A DNA stretch of 55,460 nt. Source: Planctomycetota bacterium. GTDB lineage: Bacteria; Planctomycetota; UBA1135; UBA2386. The position numbers were made by a program, and so were the translations under genes. The DNA is taken from assembly GCA_041164325.1 (NCBI GenBank), contig JBEAPQ010000326.1, forward strand, positions 1-55,460. The letters run 5' to 3'. Below the pieces are notes generated by a model that searched no databases, was not told where the DNA came from, and saw only the letters and a list, made by a program, of their open reading frames with translations. This document shows, one piece after another, positions 34,570 to 50,906 of this stretch. Positions within the stretch are counted from its first letter, which is position 1; every line of letters starts with the position of its first letter.

Positions 34570-36213
34570 ATGGCCGGGAAAGCAACCGCGATCGACATCG
34601 GCTCGCACAGCACCAAGGTGCTGTCCCTCAAGGCCGGCAAGCACGGGCTGTCCCTGGCTCGCTTCCAGGCCTACCCGACCTCGGAAGGAGCGGGTGGCGC
34701 CTCCGGCATCTCCCTCAAGGGTGTGGTCGCAGGCCTCGCCGGGCGGGACATGACGCTGCGCTACACGCAGGTCCCCCCCTCGCCGGACTGGCAGCTCCGC
34801 AACCTCATGGAGCTCGAGATCCAGGACATGGCCGGTCAGAGCGGGGGTGACCTGTCGGCCGACTACAACCTCCTGCCGATCGAGGACGAAGAGGGCGGCA
34901 ACGACACGGTCCTGCTCGCGTTCGCGCGCAACGAGGCCCTCGATCGCGCCCACTCCGTCGTCCGCGCGGCCGGCGGCTCGGTCGACGCCCACGTGCCGAA
35001 CTGCATCGCGCTCTACAACGCGTTCGTGCGCTGCGGTCCGGTCGAGGAAGATGCGACGGTCTGCGTCGTGAACCTCGGCCGGGAGACGATCGACCTTGCG
35101 ATCGTCAAGGGCGTCGACCTCCTGTTCGTCCGCAACCTGTCGAGCGGTGGCAAGGTCTTCGACGACGCGATCGCCGCGGCGTTCGGCGTGTCGGAGCGAA
35201 AGGCCGAAGCCCTGAAGAAGGACCTGCTCGACCTCGATCCGTCGAGCCGCGGGCGCTACGCGTCGGGCCAGGCCGAGAAGGTCACGGTCGCGGCAGGGGG
35301 CGCTGGCAGCATGATCGCGTCGGCGATCCAGTCTTCGCTGGCGTTCTGCCGCAACCAGACGCACAACCCGTCGCTCCAGCTCGACAAGGTCCTCATCTGC
35401 GGCGGCACCGCCAAGGCGCGCGGCATCCGCGGGATGCTGCGCGAGGCGCTGCGCTGCCCGGTCGAGGCGTTCGATCCGTTCGAGACGGTCGACATCTCGA
35501 CGCTTCCCGAGGCCGACGTCGACGCGTTCGAGCGGCACAAGTCCGAGGCGGTCGTCGCGCTCGGGCTGGCCGCGGGCCGCGTGGACGGGAGCCTCTACCA
35601 GCTCGAGATCCTGCCGGAGGCCGTCAAGCGGCGCCGTCGTTTCGTCGAGCAGACGATCTGGAACATCGCGGCCGGTCTCGTGGTCGTGGCGCTCCTCGGA
35701 TTCACGGCCGCGACGCAGAGTTCCCAGGTCCAGGAGGCGGACGAGGCGTTCCGGACGCTGAGCCGGATCAAGTCGCGCGTCCAGACGACGCACGGCGACA
35801 CCGAGCGCTTGGTTGCCGCCAACGACCGGCTGCGCAAGGTCACGGACTTCGTCGCCGAGCGGGCGATCGCCCTCGATGGTGCGATCCTCGCGCTCCGCTC
35901 GCTGGGCAGCGCGATGCCCGAGGAGTTCTGGATGACCCGGTTCGAGGTCGCCTCGCGGGCGCTCGAGAACCGGCGCGGCTCCGCGCCGAAGCCGGTCGTT
36001 CTGGTCCAGGTGGCCGGGAAGGACGTGGCGGGTCGCGGGGTCGGAGACGCCTACACGCGTTTCCTCGCGGAGTTCAAACAGCAGGAGCACGACGGTGTGT
36101 CTCCGGCGATCAGCACGCAGCGCGGCGCGGACGCCGCGGGCAACGAGACTTTCACGTGGACGATCGACTACCGGCCGGAACAGGCCGGGGGCGACGTCCA
36201 GGAAGACAACTGA
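34570..36213 (+). CDS. PilM-PilN fusion (GspL-like): cytoplasmic actin-like ATPase-fold domain + TM + periplasmic domain
   Basis: 547 aa. The PilM-type start is KATAIDIGSHSTKVLSLK, with ...VVNLGRETIDLAIV and ...ICGGTAKARGI. This is followed by LEILPEAVKRRRRF, the TM helix IWNIAAGLVVVALLGFTAA and a coiled-coil/ferredoxin-like periplasmic part. Confidence 0.8.
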   Translation: MAGKATAIDIGSHSTKVLSLKAGKHGLSLARFQAYPTSEGAGGASGISLKGVVAGLAGRDMTLRYTQVPPSPDWQLRNLMELEIQDMAGQSGGDLSADYNLLPIEDEEGGNDTVLLAFARNEALDRAHSVVRAAGGSVDAHVPNCIALYNAFVRCGPVEEDATVCVVNLGRETIDLAIVKGVDLLFVRNLSSGGKVFDDAIAAAFGVSERKAEALKKDLLDLDPSSRGRYASGQAEKVTVAAGGAGSMIASAIQSSLAFCRNQTHNPSLQLDKVLICGGTAKARGIRGMLREALRCPVEAFDPFETVDISTLPEADVDAFERHKSEAVVALGLAAGRVDGSLYQLEILPEAVKRRRRFVEQTIWNIAAGLVVVALLGFTAATQSSQVQEADEAFRTLSRIKSRVQTTHGDTERLVAANDRLRKVTDFVAERAIALDGAILALRSLGSAMPEEFWMTRFEVASRALENRRGSAPKPVVLVQVAGKDVAGRGVGDAYTRFLAEFKQQEHDGVSPAISTQRGADAAGNETFTWTIDYRPEQAGGDVQEDN

Positions 36214-36228
36214 GGCGGAGGAGGAACC

Positions 36229-37068
36229 TTGGATCTCCAGGACTTCTGGCAGGAGAACAAGCGCTGGATCCTCGGCGTCTTCGCCGGGTTGATCGTCTAC
36301 TGGGTCGGCGGCGGCATCGTTTCCGCGGTCTTCGGCGGCGCTTCGGCGTCCGGCCGGGTCCTCGCGATGGCGCGCGACCTGCAGCGTGAGGAGTACTACG
36401 ACGCGCAGGCGCTGCGCACGGCCCGCGAAGAGAACGAGCGTCTGATGGCGCTCGTCGAACGGGTGCGCGCCCATGCGGCCTTCGTTCCCGACGACGAGTT
36501 CGTGCTGACCGGCAAGGGCGACCCGGACCTCTACTTCCCCGAGGTGGAACGCCGGGTCCGCTCGCGCCTCGTGGCCTACGCGCAGGAGCGTTCGGTGGCG
36601 ATCGACGAGCGCGATCTCGTGTGGCCCGCGGCCGTTTCGCGCGAAGAGAAGGAACAGACGCTGGTCGGGCTCTGCGCGCTGCAGCACGCGGCGATCCGGC
36701 TCGTGGATGCCGGCGAGCTCGTGCGCCAAGAAGTCGCGGACGCCGTCGGACTGCAGTCGATCGAGTCCCTGCAGATCGAGAAGCGCGTCGGCTCGTCGTC
36801 GAGTCGGCGCGGGCGCCGCACGGCGGACAGCGAGATCGCCGGGCTCGTCGACGAGTACCGCGTCAAGTTCCGGTTCCGCGCCGACACCGCCACGCTCCAG
36901 GCGTGGCTCGAGAAGCTCCGCGCGGAGTCGCCGTCGATCGGGCTGGCTCCGGAGCTCCGCGTGACCCCGGGGGACCAGGTCGGCGACCCGGTCCTCGTCC
37001 AGGGCTCGCTCGCGGCCCTCGTGATTCGTGATCTCACCGCTACGGACAGCGCCAACCAGGACGGCTGA
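36229..37068 (+). CDS. PilO/GspM-like bitopic inner-membrane assembly protein
   Basis: 279 aa. The TTG start follows GGAGGAGGA. The N-terminal TM helix is WILGVFAGLIVYWVGGGIVSAVF, then a coiled coil and an alpha/beta C-terminal domain. The assignment rests on architecture and position, not on strong motifs. Confidence 0.6.
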   Translation: MDLQDFWQENKRWILGVFAGLIVYWVGGGIVSAVFGGASASGRVLAMARDLQREEYYDAQALRTAREENERLMALVERVRAHAAFVPDDEFVLTGKGDPDLYFPEVERRVRSRLVAYAQERSVAIDERDLVWPAAVSREEKEQTLVGLCALQHAAIRLVDAGELVRQEVADAVGLQSIESLQIEKRVGSSSSRRGRRTADSEIAGLVDEYRVKFRFRADTATLQAWLEKLRAESPSIGLAPELRVTPGDQVGDPVLVQGSLAALVIRDLTATDSANQDG

Positions 37069-37073
37069 ACTCC

Positions 37074-39734
37074 ATGAACATCCGCAAGGAGCCCGCCCTC
37101 TTCGTCGTGGTCGCCGCGCTGGCGGCCTGGATCTGGTCCGGGCAGTCCACGCAGCGCCTCCCGCGCTCGGCCAACACGCGCTCCATGGAGCTCGAAGCCG
37201 CCGCCGACCCGGCCGTCGTCCTCGCGGACCTCGCCGGTCGTGAAGCGGCCGCGAGCGGTCGGGACCTGTTCCGCGAGCCGACCGAGGCCACTCCGCTCCC
37301 GCCGCGCGACCTGCCGTTCCCGCCACTCGTCGCGCTGCCGGTCGTCGCGATGCCGCTGTCGCCCGGCCAGGACGCCGGTGCCTGGTACCAGCTGCGGATC
37401 GACGGGGGCGACCCGACGCCGCACGAGTTCGCGGCGCCGGCCGCGTCCGCCGGCGGCAACGAGTCGGGCGACCTCGGTCCCGGAGGCGGCGAGTCCGACC
37501 AGGGCCTCCCGGACGAGGTGATGATCGAGCGCTTCGATCGGATCTGGCTGGTCGGTGGGGGGCGTCCGTTCTTCGGCAACATCCTCCACCAGGACAAGCT
37601 GTCGCTGCCCCCGGGCGGCCCTTTCCTCGAGACGGTCCGGTTCGAGAGCGTGTCGCGCCAGACCGGCCGCGTCAGCGGGACGCTCGAGTTCGAGCCCGCG
37701 AAGGTCGAACGGATCGCGTTCGCGGAGAGCCTCGAGAACGCGATCGCGCTGCGGAAGCGGGACCTGCCGACCGGGCCTGCCGGGCTCGTGCCGCGCGAGG
37801 AGTTCCTGCGCTTCCTGCTCGATGCCGCGCGCGAGCGCGAGTGGGTGTGGAAGGAGGCGGAGGAGCAGGCCGCGGCCATCTTCGCGGTCGCTCCCGACGA
37901 GGGCTACCGCGCGAAGCTGCGCGTCCAGCGCGCCAAGGGTGACCTGGCCGCCGAGCTCGCGATCTTCCAGGACCTGCCGACGGACCTCGCGGACAGCGCG
38001 GCACGTTGGCGTGAGCAGGGAAGCTTCGAGGCGCGCCTCGGCCTGCCGAAGGACGCCGAGGAGCACCTCCGCCTCGCGGTGACGAAGGGGCCGACCGACG
38101 CCCGTTCGAACGCGGCTCTCGCCGAGTTCCTCCTCGCGCGCGGGCGCAGCGAAGAGGCCGTGCCCTTCGCGGAGGCCGCCGCGCGCAGCGCGGCCCAGGT
38201 CACGGACGAAGGCGACCGTTTCGACGTGATCCGCACGTGGGTCGCCGCGCTGCTCGCCGTCGGGCGTGTCGAGGATGCCCAGCTGGCGGTGACCCGCGCG
38301 ACGACCGGGCCTGGTGCCGAGCAGGCCTACCTGCGGGGTGCGGTCCACTACGCGAGCGGCGAACTCGAGCAGGCGGTGACGCAGTTCGAGAAGGCGGCCG
38401 ACGAGCTGCCGCGCCTCGACGCGGTGCTCGGTCTCGGCGCCTGCGCGCTCCGGGAGGGTCGCTTCGACGAGGCGCGCCAGCTCTTCGAGCGCGTCCGGGA
38501 CGAAGCGCCGGCCCTCCGTGGACGCGCGCTCGCCGGTCTGGGGCTCTTGTACGAGCGGACCGGGCACGCCGCCGAGTCGGCCGAGGCCCTGACGGCGGCC
38601 GAAGCCGCGGCGCCCCGCGATCCGTACGTCCTCTACCTGCTCGGTCGGCGCCAGCGCCTCGACGGCCAGCTGGAGGATGCGGTGACCACCGAGCGGCGCG
38701 CGCTGGCCGAACGGGACGAACTCGTCGAAGCGCTCGCCGAGATCGCGCGCGCCCAGCTGGCGCGGGTCGACGCGGCCGACGGTGACGCCGCGGAGATCCT
38801 GGCCCGGACGGTCCGCTACGTGGATCGTCTCGTCGGCCTCGACCAGGCACGCGGTCGCCACGTGCCCTTCCTCGAACTCCAGGGCTACGTGCTGGCCCGG
38901 ATCGGGGATGTCGCCCAGGCGCGGCGCGCCTTCGCGGCGGGCTACGAAGCGCAGAGCAGCTTCTGTGAGGTCGGTCTGGCGCTCCTCGACTACCGGCAGA
39001 AGCGGGTCGGTGACGCGCGGCAGAAGCTCGCGCAGCTCTCGGCGGACCCGAGCCGGGGCGGTGAGATCCGCGAGTTCGCGCGGGCGACCGTCGACCTGAT
39101 CGACGACCACGCGAGCAAGGAGCTGGTCCGGGACACGTTCGACCGTGACGTGCTCGGCGATCTCTGGACGCGCATCGGATCGCTCGCGCCCGTGCTGCGC
39201 GACCAGCAGCTGACCTTCCGCGGTCAGAGTGGGCGCGTCGGGGAGGATTCAGCGGTGCGCCGCGTGGTCCGCGCCGGCGACTTCCTCCGCTGCGAGGTCC
39301 GGATGGACATCCTCGGCGACCTCGGAACGACCGAGTTCGCGGGCCTGCGCCTCACGCCCGAGACGCAGCGTGGCGGCAGCTTCCAGGTCGAGCTCGGCCT
39401 CAAGAGCTACGGTGCCAACCGGCAGCCCGAACTCCGCCTCGTCGATGGTCCGCCCGCCCGCGAGGACTCGGTGACGGTCAAGCCCCTCGACGTCGAGGTC
39501 GGCGTCGGCCAGCCCGTCGTCCTCGCCGTCGAGTTCGTGCAGGCGATCGATGCGAGCGACAAGAGCCTGACGCTGCGCGTGCTCTGGAACGGTGAGGTCG
39601 TCGACGAGCGTCCGATCAAGACGCTGCGCTCGAACTCCGCCCAGCCGCTGGCGACCGACTTCGTGGTCCGCGGTCGCCCTGTCCACGTCCGCTTCGACGA
39701 CTACCGGCTCGAGCGCCGGAAGGAGACCCGATGA
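37074..39734 (+). CDS. Large bitopic TPR-repeat protein with a C-terminal beta-sandwich domain
   Basis: 886 aa with N-terminal TM helix ALFVVVAALAAWIW, a Pro-rich linker and many TPR-like helical repeats (for example AEFLLARGRSEEAVPFAEAAA and YLLGRRQRLDGQLEDAV). The C-terminal ~200 aa are beta-rich and end in VHVRFDDYRLERR. Confidence 0.75.
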   Translation: MNIRKEPALFVVVAALAAWIWSGQSTQRLPRSANTRSMELEAAADPAVVLADLAGREAAASGRDLFREPTEATPLPPRDLPFPPLVALPVVAMPLSPGQDAGAWYQLRIDGGDPTPHEFAAPAASAGGNESGDLGPGGGESDQGLPDEVMIERFDRIWLVGGGRPFFGNILHQDKLSLPPGGPFLETVRFESVSRQTGRVSGTLEFEPAKVERIAFAESLENAIALRKRDLPTGPAGLVPREEFLRFLLDAAREREWVWKEAEEQAAAIFAVAPDEGYRAKLRVQRAKGDLAAELAIFQDLPTDLADSAARWREQGSFEARLGLPKDAEEHLRLAVTKGPTDARSNAALAEFLLARGRSEEAVPFAEAAARSAAQVTDEGDRFDVIRTWVAALLAVGRVEDAQLAVTRATTGPGAEQAYLRGAVHYASGELEQAVTQFEKAADELPRLDAVLGLGACALREGRFDEARQLFERVRDEAPALRGRALAGLGLLYERTGHAAESAEALTAAEAAAPRDPYVLYLLGRRQRLDGQLEDAVTTERRALAERDELVEALAEIARAQLARVDAADGDAAEILARTVRYVDRLVGLDQARGRHVPFLELQGYVLARIGDVAQARRAFAAGYEAQSSFCEVGLALLDYRQKRVGDARQKLAQLSADPSRGGEIREFARATVDLIDDHASKELVRDTFDRDVLGDLWTRIGSLAPVLRDQQLTFRGQSGRVGEDSAVRRVVRAGDFLRCEVRMDILGDLGTTEFAGLRLTPETQRGGSFQVELGLKSYGANRQPELRLVDGPPAREDSVTVKPLDVEVGVGQPVVLAVEFVQAIDASDKSLTLRVLWNGEVVDERPIKTLRSNSAQPLATDFVVRGRPVHVRFDDYRLERRKETR

Positions 39735-40417
39735 TCCGATCGACGCCCCGTGGCTCCGTGCGGTCGTCCGCCGGCTTCACGCTGATCGAGCTCCTCGTCG
39801 TGATCGCGATCATCGGCACGCTCGTGGTCGCGTTCGCGCCAGCCCTGTCCGGCATGCTCGGGCGTGGCGACGAGGCCGAGACCGAGGCGCGCCAGATCGA
39901 GCTCGCGTCGATGGTGGAGTCCTACCAGCGCTACTACGGCGAGTACCCGCCGGACGACCTCAGCATCATCGTCAAGGACAAGCAGGCCAGCTGGCAGTTC
40001 GGCGCCGACAACGGCAAGAACACCGGCATCGAGTCGCTCGTCCTGCACCTGAGCTTCGATGCGAAGGCCGGCGGCAAGCTCGACGAGCGCATGGAGTGGC
40101 TCGCGAACACCGACGGTGACAAGACGCCGGTCGACGTCCCGCTGCTCGGCGGCCGCTCGCGCTACGAGATCGTCGACTCGTGGGGGACGCCGTTCGCCTA
40201 CTTCTCGGCGACGTGCGGCAGCGCCTACCAGGGCCGTCAGGTGATCCTGGGCGCGACGATCGAGGGCGCGGATGCGCTCGAGGTCTTCGCCCGCCCGTGG
40301 AAGCATCCCGAGACCGGCCAGTGGCTGAACCCGCGGAAGTTCCAGATCGTGTCCGCGGGGCCCGACCTGTCGTTCAACACGGACGACGACATCGTCTACC
40401 CGACGGTCCCGAGGTGA
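39731..40417 (+). CDS. gspG: Type II secretion major pseudopilin GspG-like
   Basis: Class III signal/N-methylation site SAGFTLIELLVVIAIIGTLV with Glu at +5. The GspG-like body has DSWGTPFAYFS and VSAGPDLSFNTDDDIVY. The ATG overlaps the TPR gene stop (ATGA). Confidence 0.85.
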   Translation: MIRSTPRGSVRSSAGFTLIELLVVIAIIGTLVVAFAPALSGMLGRGDEAETEARQIELASMVESYQRYYGEYPPDDLSIIVKDKQASWQFGADNGKNTGIESLVLHLSFDAKAGGKLDERMEWLANTDGDKTPVDVPLLGGRSRYEIVDSWGTPFAYFSATCGSAYQGRQVILGATIEGADALEVFARPWKHPETGQWLNPRKFQIVSAGPDLSFNTDDDIVYPTVPR

Positions 40418-40421
40418 CGCG

Positions 40422-41444
40422 TTGATCGCCCGTCCGTCCCATCCGCGCGGGGCGCGCGCGCCCGCCTGCGCCGCCGCGCATGCGGCGGGCTTCACGCTCC
40501 TCGAGATGCTCGTCGTCATGGCGCTGATCGGCGTCCTGATGGGGATGGGCGTCGGCTTCCTCCGCCGGACGGGAGACGACTTCGAGATCGCGCTCGCGGC
40601 CATCCGGGCCGAGACGCGCGCCGCGCAGCTGACCGCGCGGACCCGACACCTGCCGGCCGAGGTCGTGCTCGATCCCGGCCAGGACGGCCCGGCGTCGGTT
40701 CGCGCCCGCATCCTCGAGCCGGTCGGCCACTGGCACATGGAGGAGGACCCGCGCGACGACGAGAGTGCGGGCGTGCCTTCGGAGGTCCGCGGCACCGTCG
40801 AGCCCGGGCGCTTCGGCATGGCCCGTCGCTCCGAGGAGTCCTCCCGCAGCGCGCTCCTCACCGTGCGCGCCGGCACGCTCCCGGTCTTCGACCTCCGCGA
40901 CGGGTTCGCGATCCGCGTCGACCTGAAGCTCGAAGCCGCCGAGGAAGCGGTGATCGCGCGTCTGGGTGAGGGGTTCGTCGACCTGCGTCTGGACGCCGAC
41001 CTGCGGCCGGTCGCGAAGATCGTCGGCACCGAGGGCGGCGGGCGTTCGGCTGGGTCCGTGACCCTGGCGGGCACGCGGGCGCTCTCGCTCCACGCGTGGC
41101 ACACGCTGGAGCTCGTCCACGACCGTTCGCACCTGCGCCTGCTGCTCGACGGTCGTGAGATCGGACGCGAGACAGCGCGCCTGCCGGTCCTGCAGTCTGC
41201 GTCGGACGTCTTCGAGGTCTCCCCCGCGGACGGTCCCGTGCAGGGACTCGTCGACGAGGTCCTCGTCCTGGCCTACACGCTCTCCCCTCCGCAGAGGATG
41301 CCGGTCGGACTCCAGCTCGCTGCCGATCCGTCGGTCGTCCGCTTCGACGCCGAGGGCGATCTCGACGGCCCCTGCGCGTTCCGACTGACCGTCGAAGACG
41401 ACACGCGGTCCTACCGCTTCGGCCCCGGAGGAGTGATCGAATGA
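40422..41444 (+). CDS. Pseudopilin with a LamG/concanavalin-like domain (occupies the GspH position)
   Basis: Prepilin N-terminus AAGFTLLEMLVVMALIGVLMG. LamG_3-like hallmarks are VGHWHMEEDP, GFAIRVDLKL, WHTLELVHDRSHLRLLLDGREIG and VDEVLVLAYTLSPPQ. The start is TTG. Confidence 0.8.
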   Translation: MIARPSHPRGARAPACAAAHAAGFTLLEMLVVMALIGVLMGMGVGFLRRTGDDFEIALAAIRAETRAAQLTARTRHLPAEVVLDPGQDGPASVRARILEPVGHWHMEEDPRDDESAGVPSEVRGTVEPGRFGMARRSEESSRSALLTVRAGTLPVFDLRDGFAIRVDLKLEAAEEAVIARLGEGFVDLRLDADLRPVAKIVGTEGGGRSAGSVTLAGTRALSLHAWHTLELVHDRSHLRLLLDGREIGRETARLPVLQSASDVFEVSPADGPVQGLVDEVLVLAYTLSPPQRMPVGLQLAADPSVVRFDAEGDLDGPCAFRLTVEDDTRSYRFGPGGVIE

Positions 41445-44400
41445 TGCAGAGGCGTGCCGCTGAATCGGGCCTCGCGCTCGTCGCCGTCCTCGTCGCGCTC
41501 GGTGTCCTGCTGGCGATGGCTGCGCCGTTCCTGCTCAGCATGGGTCACGGGGACGCCGCGTCGCGGGCGCGGGTCGACGAGGTCCACGCCGACTGGGGTT
41601 CGGCCTCGGCGCGGGATGCACTGCTCCAGACGGCGGCCAGCGGCGCGTCTGCGTTCGATCCGAGCCCGAACGCCGACGGGCGCGACGAGTACCCCGGAAC
41701 GCTCGAACTCCCGGCGGGTTTCGAAGGCATCACGTCGACTCCCGGGGGGCGGACGGTGCTCCAGGGCAGCGTCGAAGACCTCTCCCGGCGCATCGACCTG
41801 CACTCGGCGACGCCGCTGGTCCTGGCGAACCTGCTCGGACTCGCGGTGCGCGTCCGCGGTGAAGTGGAGCTCGACGCGGCCGAGATCCCCGTCGATGGCC
41901 CGCTCGATGCGTTCCCCGAGTCGGGCTACCTGATCTGCCAGCGCGAGGTCATCCGCTACGAGGGGCGCGACGGCAGCCGGTTCTTCGGACTGACCCGCGG
42001 GGCGTTCGCGGAACTCGGTTTCCTGCCGGCCCAGCTGCTGCCCGACCACAAGTTGGACGAGGACGCGCTGGTCATGGACTTCCGCTGCGTCCTCGCGGTC
42101 ACGTGGCCGTTCCGCGGCTACGGCGATCCGGGGCGCTACGTGCCCTACGGCTCGGTCGCGGAGCTGCAGCGCATCCAGGAGGGCGGGTTCCCCGGCTTCG
42201 AGGCGCGAGAGATCGAGGCGCTCGCGCGCTTCACGACGACCGTCGCCCTCCACGACCGCAGCGCCCGCTTCGGCAAGGGCGAGCGCGTCTTCGAGATCCT
42301 CAGCGACGAGCTGCAGCAGCCGCGCATCCTGCAGGTGAAGTCGAACCTCGGGCTCGGCCCCGGGCGCGTCGTCCGCATCCGCAGTCTCGACGGGCAGTGG
42401 GTCGAGTACGGCCTCGTCTGGGACACGATCGGGCGCGGCAATCGCGGCACCTACAACCTGTCGTCGCGCCAGTACGTCGCGCTGCTCCAGCCGCTGAGCA
42501 TGCCGTTCGTGCCGGTCGATACCGTCGTCGAGCCGTTGGTCCAGGTGCCGGTCAACATCAACACCGCGGCTCCGGAAGTGCTCACGGCCCTGTTCGCGCA
42601 CGCGCGCCGGCAGGTCTCCGGCGCCAACCGCGAAGACGGCGCGACCCGGCTCCCGCCGGTGATCCGGCGTCGCGATGCCGCCAACCTCGCGACGCAGATG
42701 ACCATGCTGCGCGGCGACGACGCGGAGCTCGTGGAGGCGTTCGACCGCGACGAGAACCGGCCGTCCGGGTTCGGGAACGTCGACATGACCCCGCGACCGT
42801 TCGACGGGTTCGAGGACCTGGCCCAGCGGTTCGTGCCGATGATCCTGGGCGCCGGGGCTTCGGACTCGATGGACCAGCGCCGCCTCGTGCTGGGCGTCTA
42901 CGACGCTCTGCAGATCGGCTGCCCGGGGTCGATGGAGCAGGGGACGATGCCGGTGGCGTTCCGCTCGTCGCCGCTCGTCGGCTACCGGGCGAGCGCCTCG
43001 CGCCGCCGGTTCAGCGGCCTCGAGGCGGCGCGCCGCGAGCGCGAAGGGGTGGCGCTCGCCCTTCCCGGCGACCAGCTGTTCTGGGGTGGAGCGACGCAGG
43101 AGGCGCTGGACGAAGCGTTCCGGCTCGACCGGCGGACGCCGTTCTGGCAGACGTGGCCGATCAACACGTCCGCGGTCCCCAACGGGCAGCAGGACATGGT
43201 GCCGCCGCTGCGGACTTCGGCCCACCTGCTGGCGACGCTGTTCCCGAACGCCGGTTTCGGCGAGCCGCGGTTCGCCGATCGGTCGGGCACCGAAGCCGAG
43301 CTCCGGCCCCAGCCGGGCGTGGCTCCGATCGGTTACGGCGGCAACCTCGTCGGTCATGACGCATTCATGACGGCGCGGCACCCCGAGGGGCGCGTCCTCG
43401 CGACCGAGGGGCCCTACCGGGCGAGCAACGTCGGCCCACGCATGGCCGGCGTGTCCGAACCGAGCGGCCAGCGGGACCACTCCCGCGTGTCGTTCCCGAT
43501 GACGACGATCGGTGGCGTGTCTTCGCGGCACGCGGTGTCGTTCTGGTTGCGTCTCGACGACACCGGCCCGCAGGTCCTGTACGACGAGGCCTCGGTCGGA
43601 GAGGCTCCCGAGCGCAACCGCTACCTCGTCGAGATCCGCGACGGGATGCTGACCTACGAGGTCCGGGATGACGCCGGGCTCGACCCCGACGCGGCTGCTT
43701 CGCCCTACGCGCCGAATCCCTCGAGCGCCATCTGGCAGGCTCCGCTCGAGTCGCTCGATCTGGTCCAGGGCACCTGGTACCACATCACGGCGAGTGCCGT
43801 CGGCAACCGGCCCGGTCAGCTGTCGTTCGTCGTCGACGGCGTGCCGCGCGGGGAGCCTCGGATGCGGACCTACACGACCGCGGAGATCCCGGTCTACCAG
43901 GAAGACCGCGGCGTGCCGACGTTCCTCGCCGACTCCGATCGGTTCATCACGATCCAGGTCGAGGACGCGAGCGACTTCCCGCAGCGCGGCGTGCTCCGGA
44001 TCGGCGGCGAGCTCTTCGAATACAGTGCGCGCGACGACGGCGCGTTCTACTGCCGCTACGACGACTCGGTCGGCGGGCGACGCGCGCGGGCCACGATGCG
44101 TGAGTTCGCGATCAACGTTCCGGAGAACGGGGAGGGTGACCCGCGTCAGGATCTGCTCGCCATCGTCAACGGGGACCTCGAAGCGGTCGTCCCGAACCAC
44201 CCGTCTGGCTCCGCCGTCGAGCTCTACGGCTACGCCATCCCGGTCTACCCGCGGCGCATCCTGATCCCGGGTGGGGCACGCCTGACGGACAGCCTCGGCG
44301 CGTTCTCGATCGCACGCGCGGTCAACCGGGCCGGGATCAATCCGATCACGATCGACGTCGCGAACCGTAACCCGATCCTGATCGGAGAGGGGTTCGACGA

Positions 44401-46717
44401 AGCCTGGACGGGGGACATCGACCTCGGCAACCCCGAGGTCATCGTCGGAGGATCGGTGCCGCCGCCCGCAGACGAGCAGATCGCGGCCGGTTTCCCGCAG
44501 TCGGGGGGCTACGCGATCCTCGTCCAGCGCCGTCTCAGCATCCGGCTCGTGTCGAACAACCCAGGCCAGCTCGCGACGACCCCGGAGATCGGCGGCGTCG
44601 AGGTCATCCGCTACGCGTCGCGGACCGGCACGACGCTGAAGAACATCCAGCGGGCGGTCCAGCTGCCGGTCAACTTCGTCACCGACCAGAACGGCTTCTT
44701 CGTCCCGCAGCAGCCGCGGAACTTCGTCGTCGACTGGTCCGAGACGATGGTCGTCCGCGACCCGAACGCGGGCGAGGTCGTCCCGTTCGACGAACTGCCT
44801 CTCTACATGCTGTTCGTCGTGCCGATCTCGGTGCCGTTCAACGGCACGCTCGACGACGACCCCGAGTTCATCAACTGGCTGCAGATCCGCACCGAGGGCG
44901 GAGACGACGCCGACACCGAGTGGGTCCGCTACAACGCGATCATGGATCGCCAGCACGCGGTCCGCGCCGATCAGGCGGCGTTCGAACTCGTCCGGTTCCG
45001 GCTGACGCAGCAGACCTCTCTCCAGCAGCTCGGCGTGACGACGGGTGGGCTCGATCCGAACCAGGTCACGCTCCTCCGCGATCCGTGGGCGCCGCCGACC
45101 GACGACGGGCGGAGGCGGATCGGCTACATCGACCCCATCGAGATCCGCTATCCGGCGATCCACGAGGCCCGTCGTGCGCTGGGCTTCCGCGGGGACCCGT
45201 TCACGGGCACGTCGAGCCACCCGCAGCCGGCGAACGCCCAGGTCCTGCCCGTGCACCGCTTCGAGTTCGACTGGCCCGGCTACGGACTCGGCACGCCCCG
45301 CGCAGGTCGCGGAGACCGCGTTGCGCTGATCCCGGGGTCCGCCCGTCAGGACGGCGAGGTGCCGGGCGTCGAGTGGCACACCGTGAACTGGTCGGTGCGT
45401 CACTACGAGTGGGACCAGGTCCAGGCCGACGCGTCGGGCACCCAGAACCGCGTCGAACCGCGCCAGCGCCGCGGCGACTGGCCGTTCCAGCTGGTGGCGT
45501 TCCAGGCGCCGATCCGCAGTGGGATCTTCATCGGTGAGGGCACGTCGAGTCGGGGCGAGGAGAACCGGCTGGACACCCGGTTCCTCGATCGGATGGTCAA
45601 GTTCCCGAGCGGGGAGCTGCCGGCGGGCGATCCGGACGAGGCCTGGTTCGGTGCGCCCGTCCACGCCGACGGGGCGCCCTCGCGGGGGCTGCTCGACGAG
45701 GTCACGTACGTCGCGCGCCGCGCGCAGCCGCGTCCGCTCGACCAGCAGCTGACGGAGAACGCGAACTCGTTCTTCGTCCGACCCAACGTCATCCTGACGC
45801 CGGCTGGTCCGCTCGTGAACCTCCGACCGCGGCAGGCCGACAACTGGGGCGACGAGTCGTTCCCGCGCCAGGGAGGTCTCCTCGCGATCGACGGCGAGAT
45901 CCTGGCCTACGACCAGTACGACCCGCAGAGCGGTGAAGTGCGGATCGCGCCCGAGGGGCGTGGCCTGCTCAACACCGTGGTGCGCGCGCACGACGAGGGG
46001 GCGGTCGTCCAGTTCCTCGAGCACATCCCGGCCGCGATCCTGACCAACAGCCTGTCCAACCAGGACGACACGATCGCGGTCCAGTCGCTCGGCGGTCTGC
46101 CGCGCGGGGGAGGGACGGTGCTCCTGGGCACCGAGCTGCTCCACTACACGTGGACGCGCGGAGACGTCGAACTCGGGATGCCGCGCTTCTTCGATCCCGA
46201 CCAGGGGAGGCGTTCGTCGCAGGGCATGTTCCGCGGGCGCTACGGCACGAACCCGGCGTCCGCGTCCTCCGGTTCGGTCGCGATCTACTTCCCGTTCCGC
46301 TACTGGGATCGCTACTTCCCGCAGGCGGACGACCCGGAGTCGGCGTTCTGCCAGGTCTCGATGGCCGATGGTCCGGTCTGGTTCGACCGCTTCGGCTGGC
46401 GGGAAGACCAGGAGGACGCGACGGTCGGGGTGCAGTGCCTCGTGCGGATCGACGAGCGTGCGCCGTTCACGGCCGACCCGGAGACCACGGACGGACTGTG
46501 GCTGTGGGAGGAAGGCGAGGTCGGCGGTTTCCCGCACCGCGTGCGGCGTTTCGGCGAGCGCTTCGAAGCCCGGTTCGAGCACGTCTACCGGCCTGGTGCG
46601 TTCGACCCGATCCTGTTCCGCGCGAACTCGTGGAAGCGTGCCCCTTCGATCCGGGAGTTCGTGCTGACCTACGAAGGCGAGACGCGCGTCCTCGAGGAGA
46701 AGGTGACGGCCCGATGA
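41441..46717 (+). CDS. Giant (1758 aa) GspK-like minor pseudopilin with an internal LamG domain and repeated beta-modules
   Basis: The reading frame is uninterrupted with normal composition throughout. The N-terminus ESGLALVAVLVALGVLLAMAAPFL is GspK-style, with no Glu at +5. Two GspK-type HhH-like motifs are present: RIDLHSATPLVLANLLGL and VNINTAAPEVLTALF. The LamG core runs VSFWLRLDD...GTWYHITASAVGNRPGQLSFVVDGV. Both the start and the stop overlap neighbouring genes (ATGA). Confidence 0.85.
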   Translation: MMQRRAAESGLALVAVLVALGVLLAMAAPFLLSMGHGDAASRARVDEVHADWGSASARDALLQTAASGASAFDPSPNADGRDEYPGTLELPAGFEGITSTPGGRTVLQGSVEDLSRRIDLHSATPLVLANLLGLAVRVRGEVELDAAEIPVDGPLDAFPESGYLICQREVIRYEGRDGSRFFGLTRGAFAELGFLPAQLLPDHKLDEDALVMDFRCVLAVTWPFRGYGDPGRYVPYGSVAELQRIQEGGFPGFEAREIEALARFTTTVALHDRSARFGKGERVFEILSDELQQPRILQVKSNLGLGPGRVVRIRSLDGQWVEYGLVWDTIGRGNRGTYNLSSRQYVALLQPLSMPFVPVDTVVEPLVQVPVNINTAAPEVLTALFAHARRQVSGANREDGATRLPPVIRRRDAANLATQMTMLRGDDAELVEAFDRDENRPSGFGNVDMTPRPFDGFEDLAQRFVPMILGAGASDSMDQRRLVLGVYDALQIGCPGSMEQGTMPVAFRSSPLVGYRASASRRRFSGLEAARREREGVALALPGDQLFWGGATQEALDEAFRLDRRTPFWQTWPINTSAVPNGQQDMVPPLRTSAHLLATLFPNAGFGEPRFADRSGTEAELRPQPGVAPIGYGGNLVGHDAFMTARHPEGRVLATEGPYRASNVGPRMAGVSEPSGQRDHSRVSFPMTTIGGVSSRHAVSFWLRLDDTGPQVLYDEASVGEAPERNRYLVEIRDGMLTYEVRDDAGLDPDAAASPYAPNPSSAIWQAPLESLDLVQGTWYHITASAVGNRPGQLSFVVDGVPRGEPRMRTYTTAEIPVYQEDRGVPTFLADSDRFITIQVEDASDFPQRGVLRIGGELFEYSARDDGAFYCRYDDSVGGRRARATMREFAINVPENGEGDPRQDLLAIVNGDLEAVVPNHPSGSAVELYGYAIPVYPRRILIPGGARLTDSLGAFSIARAVNRAGINPITIDVANRNPILIGEGFDEAWTGDIDLGNPEVIVGGSVPPPADEQIAAGFPQSGGYAILVQRRLSIRLVSNNPGQLATTPEIGGVEVIRYASRTGTTLKNIQRAVQLPVNFVTDQNGFFVPQQPRNFVVDWSETMVVRDPNAGEVVPFDELPLYMLFVVPISVPFNGTLDDDPEFINWLQIRTEGGDDADTEWVRYNAIMDRQHAVRADQAAFELVRFRLTQQTSLQQLGVTTGGLDPNQVTLLRDPWAPPTDDGRRRIGYIDPIEIRYPAIHEARRALGFRGDPFTGTSSHPQPANAQVLPVHRFEFDWPGYGLGTPRAGRGDRVALIPGSARQDGEVPGVEWHTVNWSVRHYEWDQVQADASGTQNRVEPRQRRGDWPFQLVAFQAPIRSGIFIGEGTSSRGEENRLDTRFLDRMVKFPSGELPAGDPDEAWFGAPVHADGAPSRGLLDEVTYVARRAQPRPLDQQLTENANSFFVRPNVILTPAGPLVNLRPRQADNWGDESFPRQGGLLAIDGEILAYDQYDPQSGEVRIAPEGRGLLNTVVRAHDEGAVVQFLEHIPAAILTNSLSNQDDTIAVQSLGGLPRGGGTVLLGTELLHYTWTRGDVELGMPRFFDPDQGRRSSQGMFRGRYGTNPASASSGSVAIYFPFRYWDRYFPQADDPESAFCQVSMADGPVWFDRFGWREDQEDATVGVQCLVRIDERAPFTADPETTDGLWLWEEGEVGGFPHRVRRFGERFEARFEHVYRPGAFDPILFRANSWKRAPSIREFVLTYEGETRVLEEKVTAR

Positions 46718-47892
46718 CCGGCACCTCGCAAACGGTGCGGCGACGTGACGCGGGGTTCACGCTCCTCGAGCTCGTCGTGGCGATGGGCCTCCTGTCGGGC
46801 TTCCTGCTGATGCTGGTGCGGCTGCTGACGACCGGTGCAGACCTCTTCGACGAAGGAGAGCGGGGCCAGGAGCTGCTCGACCGCTCGGCGTCGGCTGTGC
46901 GCGTCGCGCAGCGTGCGCTGCACGACACGTGTGGTCCGCGCCTCCTCGGGCGTCCCGACGGGCGGACCGACGCGCGGCTCCTCGTGCACACGATCCCGAC
47001 CGGGGCGGGCGAGGGGGCTTCCCGCGTCCAGCTGCTCCGCTCGACCGAGAATCTCGATCCGGCGGTCGAGGATCGCATCCTCCGGGCCGCGTTCGAGGCC
47101 GAGGCGGCCGCCGAAGGCCTCCGCGACGCCGAAGCCGAGCGCGCGATCGCCGAAAGACTCGCGAGCTGGCCGCGCTCCGGCCGCGGCGAGCTCCAGCTCT
47201 TCCCGTGGCCGGTCGGCGACGACGGCGTCTACTTCGAGCTGCGCCGGCGGGACCTGCCGTCCGACCCGCTGCTCTACCCGGCCGAAGAGATCCCGGTCCT
47301 CGACATCCGGGACCCGGAAGATCTCGGCGTGGACTTCGAGCGGCTCCTGCTCGGATCGCGGACCGTGGCGCGCGGCCTGCTGCACTTCGAACTCCGCTTC
47401 TGGTCGCAGCGCACGCGGACTTGGCAGCTCGTCGGCACCGAAGGCCCGGAGCGTGTCTGGGACTCGACCCGCGGTGGGCTGATGCTCGGCGAGACCGAGG
47501 GCTCCGACGTGTTCGGCCTCGACTTCGGGCCGTCGAGCTTCGCGGACACGCGGGATGACATCTGGCCGCGCTGGGTCCGTGTCGTCGTGACGGTCGACGC
47601 GGGGCCGCAGACGCCGCCCGCATCGTTCCTGACGCAGGCCGTCACCGACGCGGACACGAGTCTCCAGGTGACCCGCCCCGAGGACATCCCCGACCCTGCG
47701 GACCAACCGTTCCTGAAGATCGGCGCCGAGTGGGTGCGCTTCCAGGGCGTCGTCGGCCGGACGCTGACCGGGGTGCGGCGCGGGCAGCGCGGCACGAAGG
47801 CCGTCGCGCACCCGGCCGGCACCTCCGTCCGCGCGGGGCGTGAGGCGGTGTTGGACGTGCAGATCCCACACGGGAGGGACGGCGATGACTGA
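46714..47892 (+). CDS. GspJ-like minor pseudopilin (enlarged, 392 aa)
   Basis: Prepilin N-terminus DAGFTLLELVVAMGLLSGFLLML. The body includes LLHFELRFWSQRT...WDSTRG...DDIWPRWVRVVVTV, which looks GspJ-like. The C-terminal module is FLKIGAEWVRFQGVVGRTLTGVRRGQRGTKAVAHPAGTSV. Confidence 0.7.
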   Translation: MTGTSQTVRRRDAGFTLLELVVAMGLLSGFLLMLVRLLTTGADLFDEGERGQELLDRSASAVRVAQRALHDTCGPRLLGRPDGRTDARLLVHTIPTGAGEGASRVQLLRSTENLDPAVEDRILRAAFEAEAAAEGLRDAEAERAIAERLASWPRSGRGELQLFPWPVGDDGVYFELRRRDLPSDPLLYPAEEIPVLDIRDPEDLGVDFERLLLGSRTVARGLLHFELRFWSQRTRTWQLVGTEGPERVWDSTRGGLMLGETEGSDVFGLDFGPSSFADTRDDIWPRWVRVVVTVDAGPQTPPASFLTQAVTDADTSLQVTRPEDIPDPADQPFLKIGAEWVRFQGVVGRTLTGVRRGQRGTKAVAHPAGTSVRAGREAVLDVQIPHGRDGDD

Positions 47893-48409
47893 ACACGGCC
47901 CTTGCTCACGGAAGCAGGCGTTCGGACGCGACGAGTCCGGCTTCACGCTGCTCGAACTGATCGTGGCGCTCGGCATCCTCGTGTTCGGCGCGACGTCGCT
48001 GATCGGGGCCTTGAGCCTCGGCGTCGGGTCCCGACGCGGGACCGAGATGCGCGCACGCGCCTCGCTGCTCGCGGATCAGGTCCTGCTCCACGTCGAGCGG
48101 GAGCTGCTGGGGCGGCACGGCATCCCGTCCGGCTGGCAGTCCGCCGAAGAGCTGGCGATCCCACCCGAGGGCGTCGACGTGGTCGACGGATTCCCGGGCA
48201 TGCGGTATGCCGTCTCGTTCGAGACCAGTCCGGAGCGTCCGGACATCGTGCTGGCGACCGTGACGGTCGGCTGGCGTGACCAAGGTGAGGACGATGGCGT
48301 GGTCTTCCAACGCATCGTGCCGCGGGCGGTGCCGCTGTCGCAGCGGATCAACCAGCGTCGCGAAGCGGCCGACGCGCGCACCCAGGAGTCGCGGAGGAGT
48401 TCTCGATGA
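47885..48409 (+). CDS. GspI-like minor pseudopilin
   Basis: The ATG at 47885 overlaps the previous gene by 8 nt. Prepilin N-terminus ESGFTLLELIVALGILVFGATSL, small body with ATVTVGWRDQGEDDGVVFQRIV. Confidence 0.7.
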   Translation: MTEHGPCSRKQAFGRDESGFTLLELIVALGILVFGATSLIGALSLGVGSRRGTEMRARASLLADQVLLHVERELLGRHGIPSGWQSAEELAIPPEGVDVVDGFPGMRYAVSFETSPERPDIVLATVTVGWRDQGEDDGVVFQRIVPRAVPLSQRINQRREAADARTQESRRSSR

Positions 48410-49920
48410 TGAAAGGCAGTCCCATGTCCTTCCTGCGTTCCCTGTCTGCACGGCGCGCAGCCGTCGCGCTCAGCCTCTTCTTCGGCCTGTGCGCGCTCCT
48501 GCCAGCCCAGGCGATCCAGCTTCGGACCGGCGAAGTGCTGGTCGGAGAGGTCGTCGACGCGACCAGTGAGGGGCTGTCGTTCCGGCGGCTCGACACGGGC
48601 GGCTTCCTGGAGCTCGGCTGGAACGACCTGTCGACGCTGCACGCGGCCCGGATCAAGCGCCTGAAGGGTCTGGTGGTCGCCGACGACGATGAGCCGACCC
48701 TGGTTGCCGACGTCGTGCTCTACGTCGTGGGGGGCGTGGCGCGCGACGAGGTCGTCGGCCTGATCCAGGAGTACACGAAGACGCACGTCCTGCTGAAGCG
48801 GAAGGGCGACGTGCTGCCGATCAAGCGCGAGGCGATCCTGCGGACGCGGAAGCGCGAGGTCCCGGTCCTCGAGGTCTACACCGGCGAGGAGTACTACCAG
48901 CTGAAGCTCGCCGACACCGAGCCGGGCGAAGACGCGGACCGTCACATCGCGCTCGGCGAAGAAATGCGTCGGGTCGGTGACTTCGCGCACGCCGAGGAGC
49001 ACCTGACCAAGGCCGACGAACTCGGCGGAGGGCGTCAAGCGTCCCAGCTGCCGATCATGCTCCAGCGCGTCCGCACGCTGCGAGAGGCCGAGGCCGAGCG
49101 CGAGCTCTTGGCGCAGATCCGCATCATGCGGAACCGGAAGGAGTTCTCGCGCGCCGAGGAGCTGATGGGAGAGTTCCGGCAGACCTACCCGGACTCGCGT
49201 CTGCTCGCCGAACTCGACCGGGAGGAGGAGCGCTTCGAGGAGGCGCTCGCCGACTACGCCGTCGAGCGGCTCCGGCAGGCGTGGGACCAGACCGTGCGCC
49301 GCGTCTCGGATGACAAGGTCCGTGACGACAGCGTGACGTTGGCGGCGGCGCGAGCCTACGCGGAGGACAAGATGTCCGACGACGTGTTCGGCCGCATCGC
49401 ACGGAGCCTGGAGCTCGAGCCCGAGGCCGTGGAGAAGTACTGGACCGAGCGCGAGTCGCACGGACGCGGTCGCTCCGTCGTCTACTCCTACGGCGTTGGC
49501 TCGTGGGTCCTCGGTGCCGACAAGATCATCGCTGGCACCAAGGCCGAGGGCGGTGGTGCGGGTCCGGCCGGCGGCGGCGGCGATCAGGATCCGGAGCTCG
49601 ACCGGATCATCCGCAAGCTGCGCGACCTGCAGAACCAGCAGCGCCGCGCGGGCGGTGCGGGCGGCGCGGGCGCGCCGCGCGAGGAGTCGGAGGAGGACTG
49701 GTGGCGCAAGGCCTCCCGCAACGACCGGGCGGGTTGGCTCCGGGCCTACTTCGCGGAATTCGGTGGTCACATGGAGATCACCGCTGCCTATTCGAACCCG
49801 TGTCCGAACTGCGAAGCGAGCGGCACGATCTCCGTACTCGGTGACTCCGGTCGGGAGCAGAAGCTCAAGTGCCCCATCTGCCACGGCACCAAGTTCACGC
49901 GGCTGTTCCGCGCGCGCTGA
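48406..49920 (+). CDS. Secreted protein: SH3-like N-terminal repeats, helical/TPR-like middle, Gly-rich linker, C-terminal CxxC...CxxC zinc ribbon
   Basis: 504 aa with signal peptide AAVALSLFFGLCALLPAQA and C-terminus NPCPNCEASGT...KCPICHGTKFTRL, which resembles the DnaJ CR motif. The ATG overlaps the previous stop (ATGA) and follows GGAGGAG. Confidence 0.75.
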   Translation: MMKGSPMSFLRSLSARRAAVALSLFFGLCALLPAQAIQLRTGEVLVGEVVDATSEGLSFRRLDTGGFLELGWNDLSTLHAARIKRLKGLVVADDDEPTLVADVVLYVVGGVARDEVVGLIQEYTKTHVLLKRKGDVLPIKREAILRTRKREVPVLEVYTGEEYYQLKLADTEPGEDADRHIALGEEMRRVGDFAHAEEHLTKADELGGGRQASQLPIMLQRVRTLREAEAERELLAQIRIMRNRKEFSRAEELMGEFRQTYPDSRLLAELDREEERFEEALADYAVERLRQAWDQTVRRVSDDKVRDDSVTLAAARAYAEDKMSDDVFGRIARSLELEPEAVEKYWTERESHGRGRSVVYSYGVGSWVLGADKIIAGTKAEGGGAGPAGGGGDQDPELDRIIRKLRDLQNQQRRAGGAGGAGAPREESEEDWWRKASRNDRAGWLRAYFAEFGGHMEITAAYSNPCPNCEASGTISVLGDSGREQKLKCPICHGTKFTRLFRAR

Positions 49921-50906
49921 TCGCCGGCCTCTTCGGTCTGCTGGCGGGGTGCGCGGCGCCGCGTCCGGTGTCCCGCGCCCCGGCTGTGCCGAGGCCGGAA
50001 GCCCCGCGGGTCGAGCTCGTGCCGCCGGCTCCGGCGTGGCAGTCCCCCGCGGGGGCGGCGTCCGCCGCCGAGGGCTCGGAGCTCCTCGCGCCCGCACGCC
50101 GTGGCGACGACGTCGTGGCCACGGTCGGAGCGGTGGAGCTCCGCAAGAGTGACGTCTACGACCGTCTCGTCGATGGGGACCCGCAGACGGCGAGGCTCTG
50201 GCTCGACCTGGTCGTTCTCGACGCGGTCATCGCGGACTTCGCCCAGCGGCTCGGCGTCGTGGTCGACGAGGCGGACGTCGAGGACGTGGCCCGGGATGCC
50301 GAAGCGATGCTCCGGACCCAGGTCGAAGTCGAGTACGACGGGCGGCGGAGTTTCGCGGACTACCTCGCCGCGGAGTTCGGCATCGACGAGTCGGGCTACG
50401 CGCGACTCCTGCGCGACGACCTGTTGCGGGCGCGCTACCGGGGTCTCGTGATCCGGTATCTCGCGCTCCGCGAGGAGCGCGCCGAGATCCGGCTGATCGT
50501 CCATCCCGACCAGGGAGTGCTCGAGGACGCGCGCGCCCGGGTCGAGGCCGGCGCGGACTTCGCGGCGCTCGCCCGCCAGTTCTCGGAGGACGCGACGCGC
50601 ACCGAGGGGGGGCGGCTCGGGCCGTTCGACCGCGGGTTCCGGCACCCGGTCGCGCAGATCGCCTTCGAGCTGGAGCCCGGTGAGGTGTCTGCGGTGCTGT
50701 CTTTCGAGGACCGCGGCGTGGCCCGTCGCGCGCTCGTCTACTGCCTCGCCCGTCATCCGGCGCGGGACGCGTCCTTCGCCGCCATGCGTGCCGAGATCGA
50801 GGCCGATCTGGAGGCTCGACCGATCAGCGCGCTGGAGCAGGGAGCGTTCGTAGCTCGCTACTGTCGCTCGGGTTCCGCGCTTGACAGTGCTGCGGGGGAC
50901 CGGTGA
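49869..50906 (+). CDS. Lipoprotein peptidyl-prolyl isomerase (PpiC/parvulin type)
   Basis: Lipobox LFGLLAGC, then the parvulin motif ADFAALARQFSEDATRTEGGRLGPFDRG...LEPGEVSAVL. The GTG at 49869 is the only in-frame start before the signal peptide, and it overlaps the upstream gene by 52 nt. Confidence 0.75.
   Translation: MPHLPRHQVHAAVPRALIAGLFGLLAGCAAPRPVSRAPAVPRPEAPRVELVPPAPAWQSPAGAASAAEGSELLAPARRGDDVVATVGAVELRKSDVYDRLVDGDPQTARLWLDLVVLDAVIADFAQRLGVVVDEADVEDVARDAEAMLRTQVEVEYDGRRSFADYLAAEFGIDESGYARLLRDDLLRARYRGLVIRYLALREERAEIRLIVHPDQGVLEDARARVEAGADFAALARQFSEDATRTEGGRLGPFDRGFRHPVAQIAFELEPGEVSAVLSFEDRGVARRALVYCLARHPARDASFAAMRAEIEADLEARPISALEQGAFVARYCRSGSALDSAAGDR

Follow-up and report, generated by a model that had tools for sequence, protein, structure and literature searches.

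A 55,460-nucleotide (nt) contig of approximately 70% G+C from a Planctomycetota metagenome-assembled genome (MAG) (JBEAPQ010000326.1, assembly GCA_041164325.1; hereafter the window) encodes a 1758-amino-acid (aa) protein that is named only 'hypothetical protein RL562_2151' in the NCBI record. We propose that this protein, referred to here as the giant, is probably the K-type (apical) minor pseudopilin of a type IV filament or type II secretion system (T2SS)-like system specific to an uncultured Planctomycetota lineage. In the T2SS, GspK (also named XcpX) is the minor pseudopilin at the tip of the GspI-J-K trimer. The domain content of the giant, and analogy with other filament tips, make it plausible that the protein serves as a lectin-bearing tip adhesin or capture device rather than as part of a piston.

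The giant is encoded by an open reading frame (ORF) on the + strand (41441..46717), which runs through 1758 codons without interruption and specifies a protein of 193 kDa with a pI of 5.0. The G+C contents of the first, second and third codon positions are 0.71, 0.49 and 0.91, and the third-position value (GC3) stays between 0.84 and 0.98 across all 300-nt blocks. A GGAG sequence lies 8 nt ahead of the ATG, which forms an ATGA overlap with the upstream pseudopilin gene (stop codon 41442-41444). The 3′ end forms a second ATGA overlap, with a downstream prepilin gene (ATG at 46714). An uninterrupted 5.3-kb ORF overlapping both of its neighbours had been described in a first-pass annotation made from the DNA letters alone, and both points were borne out, with coding-type GC3 throughout. 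The ORF is thus confirmed as real and intact, and is neither a chance ORF nor a mis-assembly.

Long ORFs turn up in several frames of high-GC DNA, and an antisense ORF (41411-46582, - strand, 1723 aa) covers nearly the entire gene of the giant. It was rejected as a real gene and regarded as a high-GC artefact, because its codon-position G+C (0.91/0.49/0.72) is the inverted pattern of that in the frame of the giant. Spurious frames of this kind, and the splitting of the gene over two contigs in the closest relative, would be the grounds for regarding the giant itself as an artefact, produced in a high-GC MAG when several genes were fused or frameshifted or when a chimera arose by mis-assembly. 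That explanation is effectively refuted by the uniform coding-type GC3, by at least 36 independent full-length homologs of near-identical length with relatives in 192 species, and by structure prediction. AlphaFold2 models were built from a 44-sequence alignment as two monomer halves, and both were confident (aa 1-680, predicted local distance difference test (pLDDT) score 85.3 and predicted TM-score (pTM) 0.85; aa 641-1758, pLDDT 87.7 and pTM 0.85), which indicates that the sequence folds.

The 36 full-length homologs are 1715-1780 aa long (38-72% identity), and more distant homologs are approximately 1900 aa long. A profile of the first 660 aa of the giant matched 1348 clusters at 50% identity, 347 of them at E<1e-30, with a weak tail that may or may not include canonical GspK proteins. 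Relatives were found in 192 GTDB species representatives; all 80 of these carriers that were listed are MAGs, and nearly all are labelled Planctomycetota. The concern that homologs might always be split into several genes did not hold, since the gene is never split and its length is conserved: of the 192 collected proteins, 141 reach 1500 aa or more (median 1726 aa), and the majority of the remainder look like fragments, with one or both protein ends missing. In the closest relative (91-93% identity; MAG casp15-mb.161, of very low assembly coverage), the gene lies on two contigs (L005, 10001-13051, and L008, 2-2425), so that database fragments of the family can be assembly breaks and not true short forms. 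Nor was a chimera indicated, since the full-length gene occurs in the same 11-gene cluster in 45/45 loci with full flanks. Nearly every database record seen names these proteins 'hypothetical protein', and one fragment is named 'type II secretion system protein'. A homology search with the N-terminal profile of the giant returned four proteins and revealed no intermediates between GspK and the giant.

The N-terminus of the giant resembles that of GspK. It carries a class-III-type signal followed by helix α1 (41441..41638, + strand, as are all features below), with the sequence MMQRRAAESG/LALVAVLVAL, in which the slash marks the predicted processing site. The 10-aa basic leader ends with Gly at position -1, which is conserved in 37/37 aligned homologs, and position +1 is hydrophobic. 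At position +5, 34 of 39 sequences have Ala and the others Thr, Leu or Val; Glu never occurs there. Canonical GspK sequences show the same pattern of Gly at -1 and no Glu at +5 (32/32). In the AlphaFold model, α1 is a hydrophobic to amphipathic helix of approximately 60 residues (aa 6-66). The pseudopilin helix without Glu at +5 that had been reported from the DNA is therefore present. No Pfam match to N_methyl (PF07963/IPR012902) was found in the giant, in contrast to the four neighbouring prepilins, each of which has one. The strict conservation of Gly -1 and of the short basic leader would not be expected unless the peptidase site were in use.

Sequence comparison at the level of family profiles supports the assignment of aa 1 to ~625 as a true but remote homolog of GspK, outside the curated GspK family. 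A profile of 32 canonical GspK proteins was compared by hhalign with the N-terminal profile of the giant's family. Residues 7-127 of the giant aligned with GspK 4-115 (96.9-97.6% probability, E 1.9e-10 to 3.7e-12). The match persisted when the membrane part of the helix was left out (aa 37-127, E 8e-6), and also in a helix-free segment (aa 67-135, E 1.8e-5). Residues 330-470 alone aligned with the second SAM-like (sterile alpha motif-like) domain of GspK (GspK 181-259, E 4e-7), and at low stringency the alignment was collinear from aa 1-516 of the giant to GspK 1-304. Controls with a reversed GspK profile and with profiles of the two downstream pseudopilins gave at most 5% probability, except for a generic pilin-helix match to the I-like pseudopilin (69%). 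Among 27 homologs, weak matches to NCBIfam T2SS_GspK (NF037980) were found in 25 (best E 1.9e-10), and matches to Pfam T2SSK (PF03934) at E<0.1 in 19 (best 1.7e-4). The best PDB sequence match of the whole-family profile was to Pseudomonas aeruginosa XcpX/GspK (5vtm_X, E 0.031). The description of the protein as a GspK-like pseudopilin several times the canonical size (1758 aa versus ~300-350 aa) therefore stands, as remote homology combined with gene context.

The GspK-homologous pilin module (41441..43315), delimited from hhalign and AlphaFold, is enlarged by insertions. The first GspK-type motif (41777..41842; E-x-D-L-x-R-x-x-x-L-[ND]...PLVLANLL) starts the first element resembling SAM and helix-hairpin-helix (HhH) domains, and includes RIDLHSATPLVLANLLGL (aa 117-134, nt 41789-41842). 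With the N-terminal helix excluded (E 1.8e-5), it aligns with the 'D-x-Q-x-x-F-N-L-N' strand/helix of GspK; D113 and N130 are invariant. In the model, a β-strand ends in the 'DLxR..L[ND]' motif and is followed by the short helix PLVLANLL. A first β-barrel insertion comes next (41843..42079, aa 135-213, from AlphaFold strands), at the position of the DWxDxD...GAED loop of GspK. It contains repeat R1 (FPESGYLICQREVIRYEGRDGSRFFGLTRG), and gave only EF-Tu/IF2 domain-II-type barrels in Foldseek and a match to phrog_708 (baseplate wedge, E 5.4e-5). Several predicted helices separate it from a second barrel insertion (42281..42538, aa 281-366, strands at pLDDT >90), for which no GspK counterpart was seen in the hhalign alignment.

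The second SAM/HhH-like domain (42539..42850, aa 367-470), with the motif PVNINTA, was located from Pfam T2SSK, 5vtm_X and hhalign, and includes VNINTAAPEVLTALF (aa 371-385, nt 42551-42595). Two GspK motifs of this type had been placed at nt 41777-41842 and 42542-42598 in the first-pass annotation, and these positions proved accurate to within a few codons. More helices follow this region in the model, and a β-hairpin at aa 512-539 gave a low-confidence alignment to the last strands of GspK. Model confidence drops at aa 632-638 and 662-680, suggesting that the low-confidence stretch around aa 630-680 is a linker.

Beyond this stretch, the model contains a jelly roll of the LamG/concanavalin-A-like type (43487..43885, aa ~683-815). 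Foldseek matched it with probability 1.0 to CBM40, laminin-G, agrin and pentraxin structures (root-mean-square deviation 3.4-4.4 Å over ~110-120 columns), and also to the botulinum Hc lectin-type domain. The segments FWLRLDD, GTWYHITA and LSFVVDGV fall within aa 701-801 (nt 43541-43843), and a Laminin_G_3 sequence match was found in 5/27 homologs (best E 9e-8). A LamG/concanavalin-like core had been proposed at about nt 43478-43870, and the structural comparison agrees with it. The more than 900 β-rich residues that had been noted downstream correspond to a head of approximately 930 residues in the confident model (43886..46678, aa 816-1746; AlphaFold and repeat detection), which folds as one compact body. 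Foldseek searches with the C-terminal model against PDB and BFVD gave no convincing counterpart for aa 816-1746; apart from the jelly roll, sialidases and large structural proteins of phages were matched only at low TM. No Pfam match to a PilY1-type propeller (PF05567/IPR008707) was found in the giant, and the PDB matches that Foldseek listed for the C-terminal model included no PilY1 structure.

The head contains at least four further copies of a small barrel with the pattern 'G.h.I..E.I.Y....L..L.RG..GT'. The longer pattern 'FP..G.h.I..E.I.Y....L..L.RG..GT...H..G..V' occurs in at least five copies in the giant, and repeat detection located barrel repeats at 41888-42079, 43973-44245, 44498-44695, 44873-44965, 45854-46057 and 46094-46315. 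A further copy forms the C-terminus of the adjacent 392-aa pseudopilin (47617-47838, aa 302-375). The phage tail protein family phrog_1101 matched both proteins (E 1e-4 at aa 1466-1527 of the giant; 1.8e-7 at aa 302-372 of the 392-aa pseudopilin). The sole Pfam match of isolated repeat units was a weak one to Rcc01698_C, a gene transfer agent (GTA) protein domain (E 0.0086), which was also matched in 4/27 homologs; the PHROG families supported the assignment better. These similarities suggest a barrel module common to phage tails and pilus-tip subunits.

The giant ends in a nearly invariant tail (46679..46714; R-[IV]-[LFV]-x-E-[RQK]-V-[TS]-A-R-COOH), which finishes at the same alignment column in 38/39 homologs and has a terminal Arg that is 95% conserved. 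The tail had a pLDDT below 50 when the C-terminal part was modelled alone. By analogy with PilY1 and CpaL, it is a candidate donor strand for β-strand addition in a tip complex.

The giant is translationally coupled to four canonical prepilin genes, and is co-inherited with genes for GspL-like, GspM-like, FHA and TPR proteins. Gene order was compared in 45 GTDB loci with full 10-kb flanks, which span 31-55% identity. The cluster as a whole is collinear in 42-45 of these loci; its 11 genes are each present in 44-45 of the 45, in unchanged order, and the housekeeping flanks are also kept, with an RNA methyltransferase gene upstream in 38/45 loci and ScpB downstream in 42/45. The layout is the same around the distant ~1900-aa homologs. 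This conservation implies that the locus is no mobile island but an old part of the lineage's core, passed on vertically, and its persistence across such a range of identity argues for one functional unit. In the window, the conserved region extends over 31391-52196.

All four neighbouring prepilins carry the canonical G/FTL[IL]E motif. Upstream of the giant, a 228-aa GspG-like, possibly major, pseudopilin (39731..40417; AG/FTLIELLVV; N_methyl 7e-7; 45/45 loci) matched GspG TIGR01710 at 2e-8, below the cut-off. It is followed by a 340-aa GspH-like pseudopilin (40422..41444; AG/FTLLEMLVV; N_methyl 1.2e-6; 45/45 loci) that matched GspH TIGR01708 at 3.7e-7, likewise below the cut-off. The GspH-like protein has its own Laminin_G_3 domain (1e-5) and is by itself a textbook modular pilin. 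Downstream of the giant are a 392-aa prepilin-type protein (46714..47892; AG/FTLLELVVA; N_methyl 5.9e-5; 44/45 loci), to which the J role can be assigned only by elimination, and a small GspI-like pseudopilin (47885..48409; SG/FTLLELIVA; XpsI 6.2e-6 and GspI 2e-3, both below the cut-offs; 45/45 loci). In PDB profile searches with these two downstream proteins, only the generic pilin N-terminus was matched.

The cluster begins with the gene for an FHA-domain protein with a transmembrane (TM) segment after the FHA domain (32485..34500; FHA 1.7e-15, Yop-YscD_cpl 2.3e-15; 45/45 loci). In this protein a cytoplasmic FHA domain, the TM segment and ~520 periplasmic residues without a family match form a topology like that of YscD, a type III secretion system ring protein. 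An FHA/YscD-like gene is unusual for T2SS and type IV pilus loci. At a distance of 13 kb upstream is a Ser/Thr kinase gene (18054-19169), and adjoining the kinase gene is one for an 862-aa protein with HEAT repeats and a von Willebrand factor A (vWA) domain (19598-22186), apparently unrelated to the cluster. A GspL-like protein follows (34570..36213; PilM_2 3.6e-21, TM segment at aa 361-384, periplasmic tail; 45/45 loci). Its best NCBIfam match was to the Amuc_1101 family of PilM-like pilus complex proteins from Akkermansia (1.5e-34, below the cut-off), which hints that the machinery belongs to a type IV filament lineage specific to the Planctomycetes-Verrucomicrobia-Chlamydiae (PVC) superphylum.

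Next come a bitopic 279-aa protein that resembles GspM/PilO in topology only (36229..37068; N-terminal TM segment at aa 13-38; 44/45 loci) and gave no family match in Pfam or NCBIfam, and an 886-aa TPR protein (37074..39734; TPR families; 44/45 loci). The cluster closes with a 504-aa secreted protein of unknown family (48406..49920; N-terminal signal-like hydrophobic segment; 44/45 loci) and a probable lipoprotein of the PPIC-type peptidyl-prolyl isomerase (PPIase) class (49869..50906; Rotamase 1.5e-8, lipobox LLAGC; 44/45 loci). The PPIase may serve this system as its own folding factor, or may simply lie next to it.

On the basis of these observations, we suggest the following mode of action. 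Prepilin peptidase would cleave the giant after Gly10, and helix α1 would then anchor the protein in the inner membrane. Together with the two downstream pseudopilins, the GspK-like module would nucleate a tip complex of the I-J-K type, which the H-like subunit could adapt to a fibre of the G-like subunit, so that a 120-kDa head would be carried on the fibre tip. The lectin-like domain and the phage-tail-like barrels of the head may bind a ligand, most likely a glycan, and the fibre would act in adhesion or capture. With the LamG domain of the GspH-like pseudopilin counted in, there would be two lectin-type modules in the putative tip. One polypeptide would thereby do the jobs of PilX/PilK and of PilY1/PilC of type IVa pili.

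Several observations weigh against this proposal. The giant alone matched Pfam T2SSK at E 0.025 with 15.4 bits (cut-off 24.2), only at aa 371-386 and only to profile positions 1-16, and it scored 12.9 bits against NF037980 (cut-off 130). The first SAM-like domain T2SSK_1st (PF21687) gave no match in the giant or in any of the 27 homologs, and β-barrel sequence fills the position of the GspK loop DWxDxD...GAED when the profiles are aligned. The T2SSK-type match anticipated in the first-pass annotation thus failed at the level of the single protein in Pfam, and held at the level of the family, in hhalign, in the NF037980 matches of the homologs and in the match to 5vtm_X. A Foldseek search of PDB with the whole 680-aa N-terminal model did not retrieve GspK and gave only EF-Tu/IF2 domain-II-type barrels (TM ~0.1). 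With a multi-domain query such a search is uninformative, and profile-profile comparison was therefore relied on instead. Genes for a secretin, GspE/PilB, GspF/PilC, PilT or a prepilin peptidase were not found in the window, and may lie elsewhere in the genome; in three relatives that were inspected, the genes called within the 10-kb flanks likewise included none of these core components. Finally, a compact head of ~120 kDa would be large to pass through a secretin.

In an alternative reading, the giant caps a classical T2SS pseudopilus. The fibre would stay in the (enlarged) planctomycetal periplasm, and the head would either plug the secretin or serve as a platform that docks and pushes exoproteins. 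In favour of this, the neighbouring proteins find their best family matches among T2SS types (GspG, GspH, XpsI/GspI), the PilM-like protein has a fused GspL architecture, and GspK is the closest family of the giant itself. Against this, the T2SS core genes (GspD/E/F/C) are not nearby, canonical T2SS tips are small (GspK is ~35 kDa), and the lectin-type domains on the H-like and K-like subunits, together with the phage-tail-like barrels, suggest an external ligand. We consider a periplasmic cap rather unlikely. A static role is more doubtful still. Here the GspK-like N-terminus would be retained only as a signal-anchor, and the giant would be no filament subunit but a fixed inner-membrane component of the envelope, such as a trans-envelope scaffold. 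Its very large size would suit such a role, as would the scaffold-like proteins of the cluster (FHA protein with YscD-like topology, TPR protein, PPIase) and the failure of whole-model Foldseek to recover a pilin fold. However, homology to GspK reaches two soluble segments beyond the membrane helix, Gly -1 and the short basic leader are strictly conserved, and the gene is translationally coupled to four prepilin genes on both sides. These features make a mere anchor improbable.

A bolder version of the tip-adhesin proposal, which we regard as unlikely, is that the giant is a cis-fusion of a PilK/GspK initiator with a tip adhesin of the PilY1/MshQ class. The C-terminal tail would complete a pilin β-sheet in the I-J-K tip complex, and a lectin-headed, retractile fibre would capture polysaccharides. 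Folding of the tail back or across would be an extreme case of the 'beta-strand addition' licensing mechanism. In cultured Planctomycetes, dextran was found bound to pili-like fibres that emanate from crateriform structures (PMC5394234). Those fibres, from other organisms and of unassigned identity, make a capture role attractive in either version of the proposal.

We found no description of the giant's family in the literature, and no report of a larger pilin-type subunit. Large and modular minor pilins are already known; what stands out here is the size of the protein, its conservation and its invisibility to current family models. If our assignment is correct, a type IV filament can carry a subunit of ~190 kDa, approximately 5 times the size of canonical GspK and approximately twice that of the largest modular pilin named in a published survey (PMC8179133). 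The family also exposes a blind spot of such surveys: with 1348 clusters at 50% identity and 192 GTDB species it is large, yet it has no Pfam or NCBIfam match above the cut-off, and pilin surveys based on the N_methyl motif miss it because the giant lacks the motif. The phage-tail/GTA-like barrel in two putative tip subunits hints at domain exchange between phage tails and pilus tips. The co-inherited 11-gene cluster offers an entry point to envelope fibres, and possibly to macromolecule capture, in an uncultured lineage of Planctomycetota.

Among known systems, Verru_Chthon cassette protein A (TIGR02600) is a large protein encoded beside the prepilin-type cassette proteins B-D in Verrucomicrobia. 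Similarly, the giant is a very large protein beside several prepilin-type proteins in a genome of the PVC superphylum, and its GspH-like neighbour gave weak matches to Verru_Chthon cassette proteins D (8.9e-6) and C (0.01). An identity of the giant with cassette protein A was rejected: it gave no TIGR02600 match at E≤1, and only 1/27 homologs matched, at E 0.012.

The closest counterpart is GspK/XcpX, represented by PDB 3CI0 and 5VTM. The giant shares with it the short leader, Gly at -1, a hydrophobic residue at +1, the lack of Glu at +5 and the long α1. Further similarities are a first β-strand followed by a 'D-L-Q-x-x-x-L-N'-type motif, and a second SAM/HhH-like domain with VN(I/V)NTA. Like gspK, its gene stands among G-, H-, I- and J-type pseudopilin genes (J by elimination) and near GspL/M-like genes. 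In contrast to GspK (~300-350 aa), the 1758-aa giant falls under all curated family cut-offs. PF21687 was not detected in it; a barrel takes the place of the DWxDxD...GAED loop and a second barrel precedes the VNINTA domain. Approximately 1130 residues are appended, comprising the low-confidence stretch, the LamG domain and the β-rich head. The locus also differs from that of a T2SS: the order is G-H-K-(J?)-I instead of G-H-I-J-K, and GspC/D/E/F are not adjacent.

Modular pilins carry an adhesive module on a pilin module, and the LamG-type domain PF13385 is one of those often grafted in this way (PMC8179133). Examples of large PilK-type or modular pilins, in which functional modules are displayed at the tip, are CpaL/TadG (~600 aa), Thermus ComZ, and PilB (vWA) and PilC (concanavalin A-like lectin) of Streptococcus sanguinis (PMC8179133, PMC13533445). 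In the giant, too, a pilin module is joined to domains not specific to type IV filament biology, as in modular pilins in the sense of Raynaud et al. 2021 (PMC8179133). It differs in being about twice as long as the most extreme multi-domain case named in the survey (860 aa; PMC8179133), in lacking a detectable IPR012902/N_methyl, and in having a pilin module of GspK type with internal barrel insertions.

PilK-type subunits are of two sorts: CpaL and ComZ contain large insertions, and others recruit a large adhesin such as PilY1 or MshQ through its C-terminal β-strand (PMC13533445). PilX/PilK with PilY1/PilC in type IVa pili, and the mannose-sensitive hemagglutinin (MSHA) pili with MshQ, thus likewise have a K-type minor pilin that carries a tip adhesin of more than 100 kDa, and in adhesins of the PilY1/MshQ class the extreme C-terminus is strictly conserved, as it is in the giant (PMC13533445). 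Unlike PilX/PilK and PilY1, the pilin module and the large body of the giant form a single polypeptide, in which the PilY1 propeller was not detected. If our proposal is correct, the roles of initiator (K) and tip adhesin, which type IVa pili divide between PilX/PilK and PilY1/PilC, are merged here in one gene.

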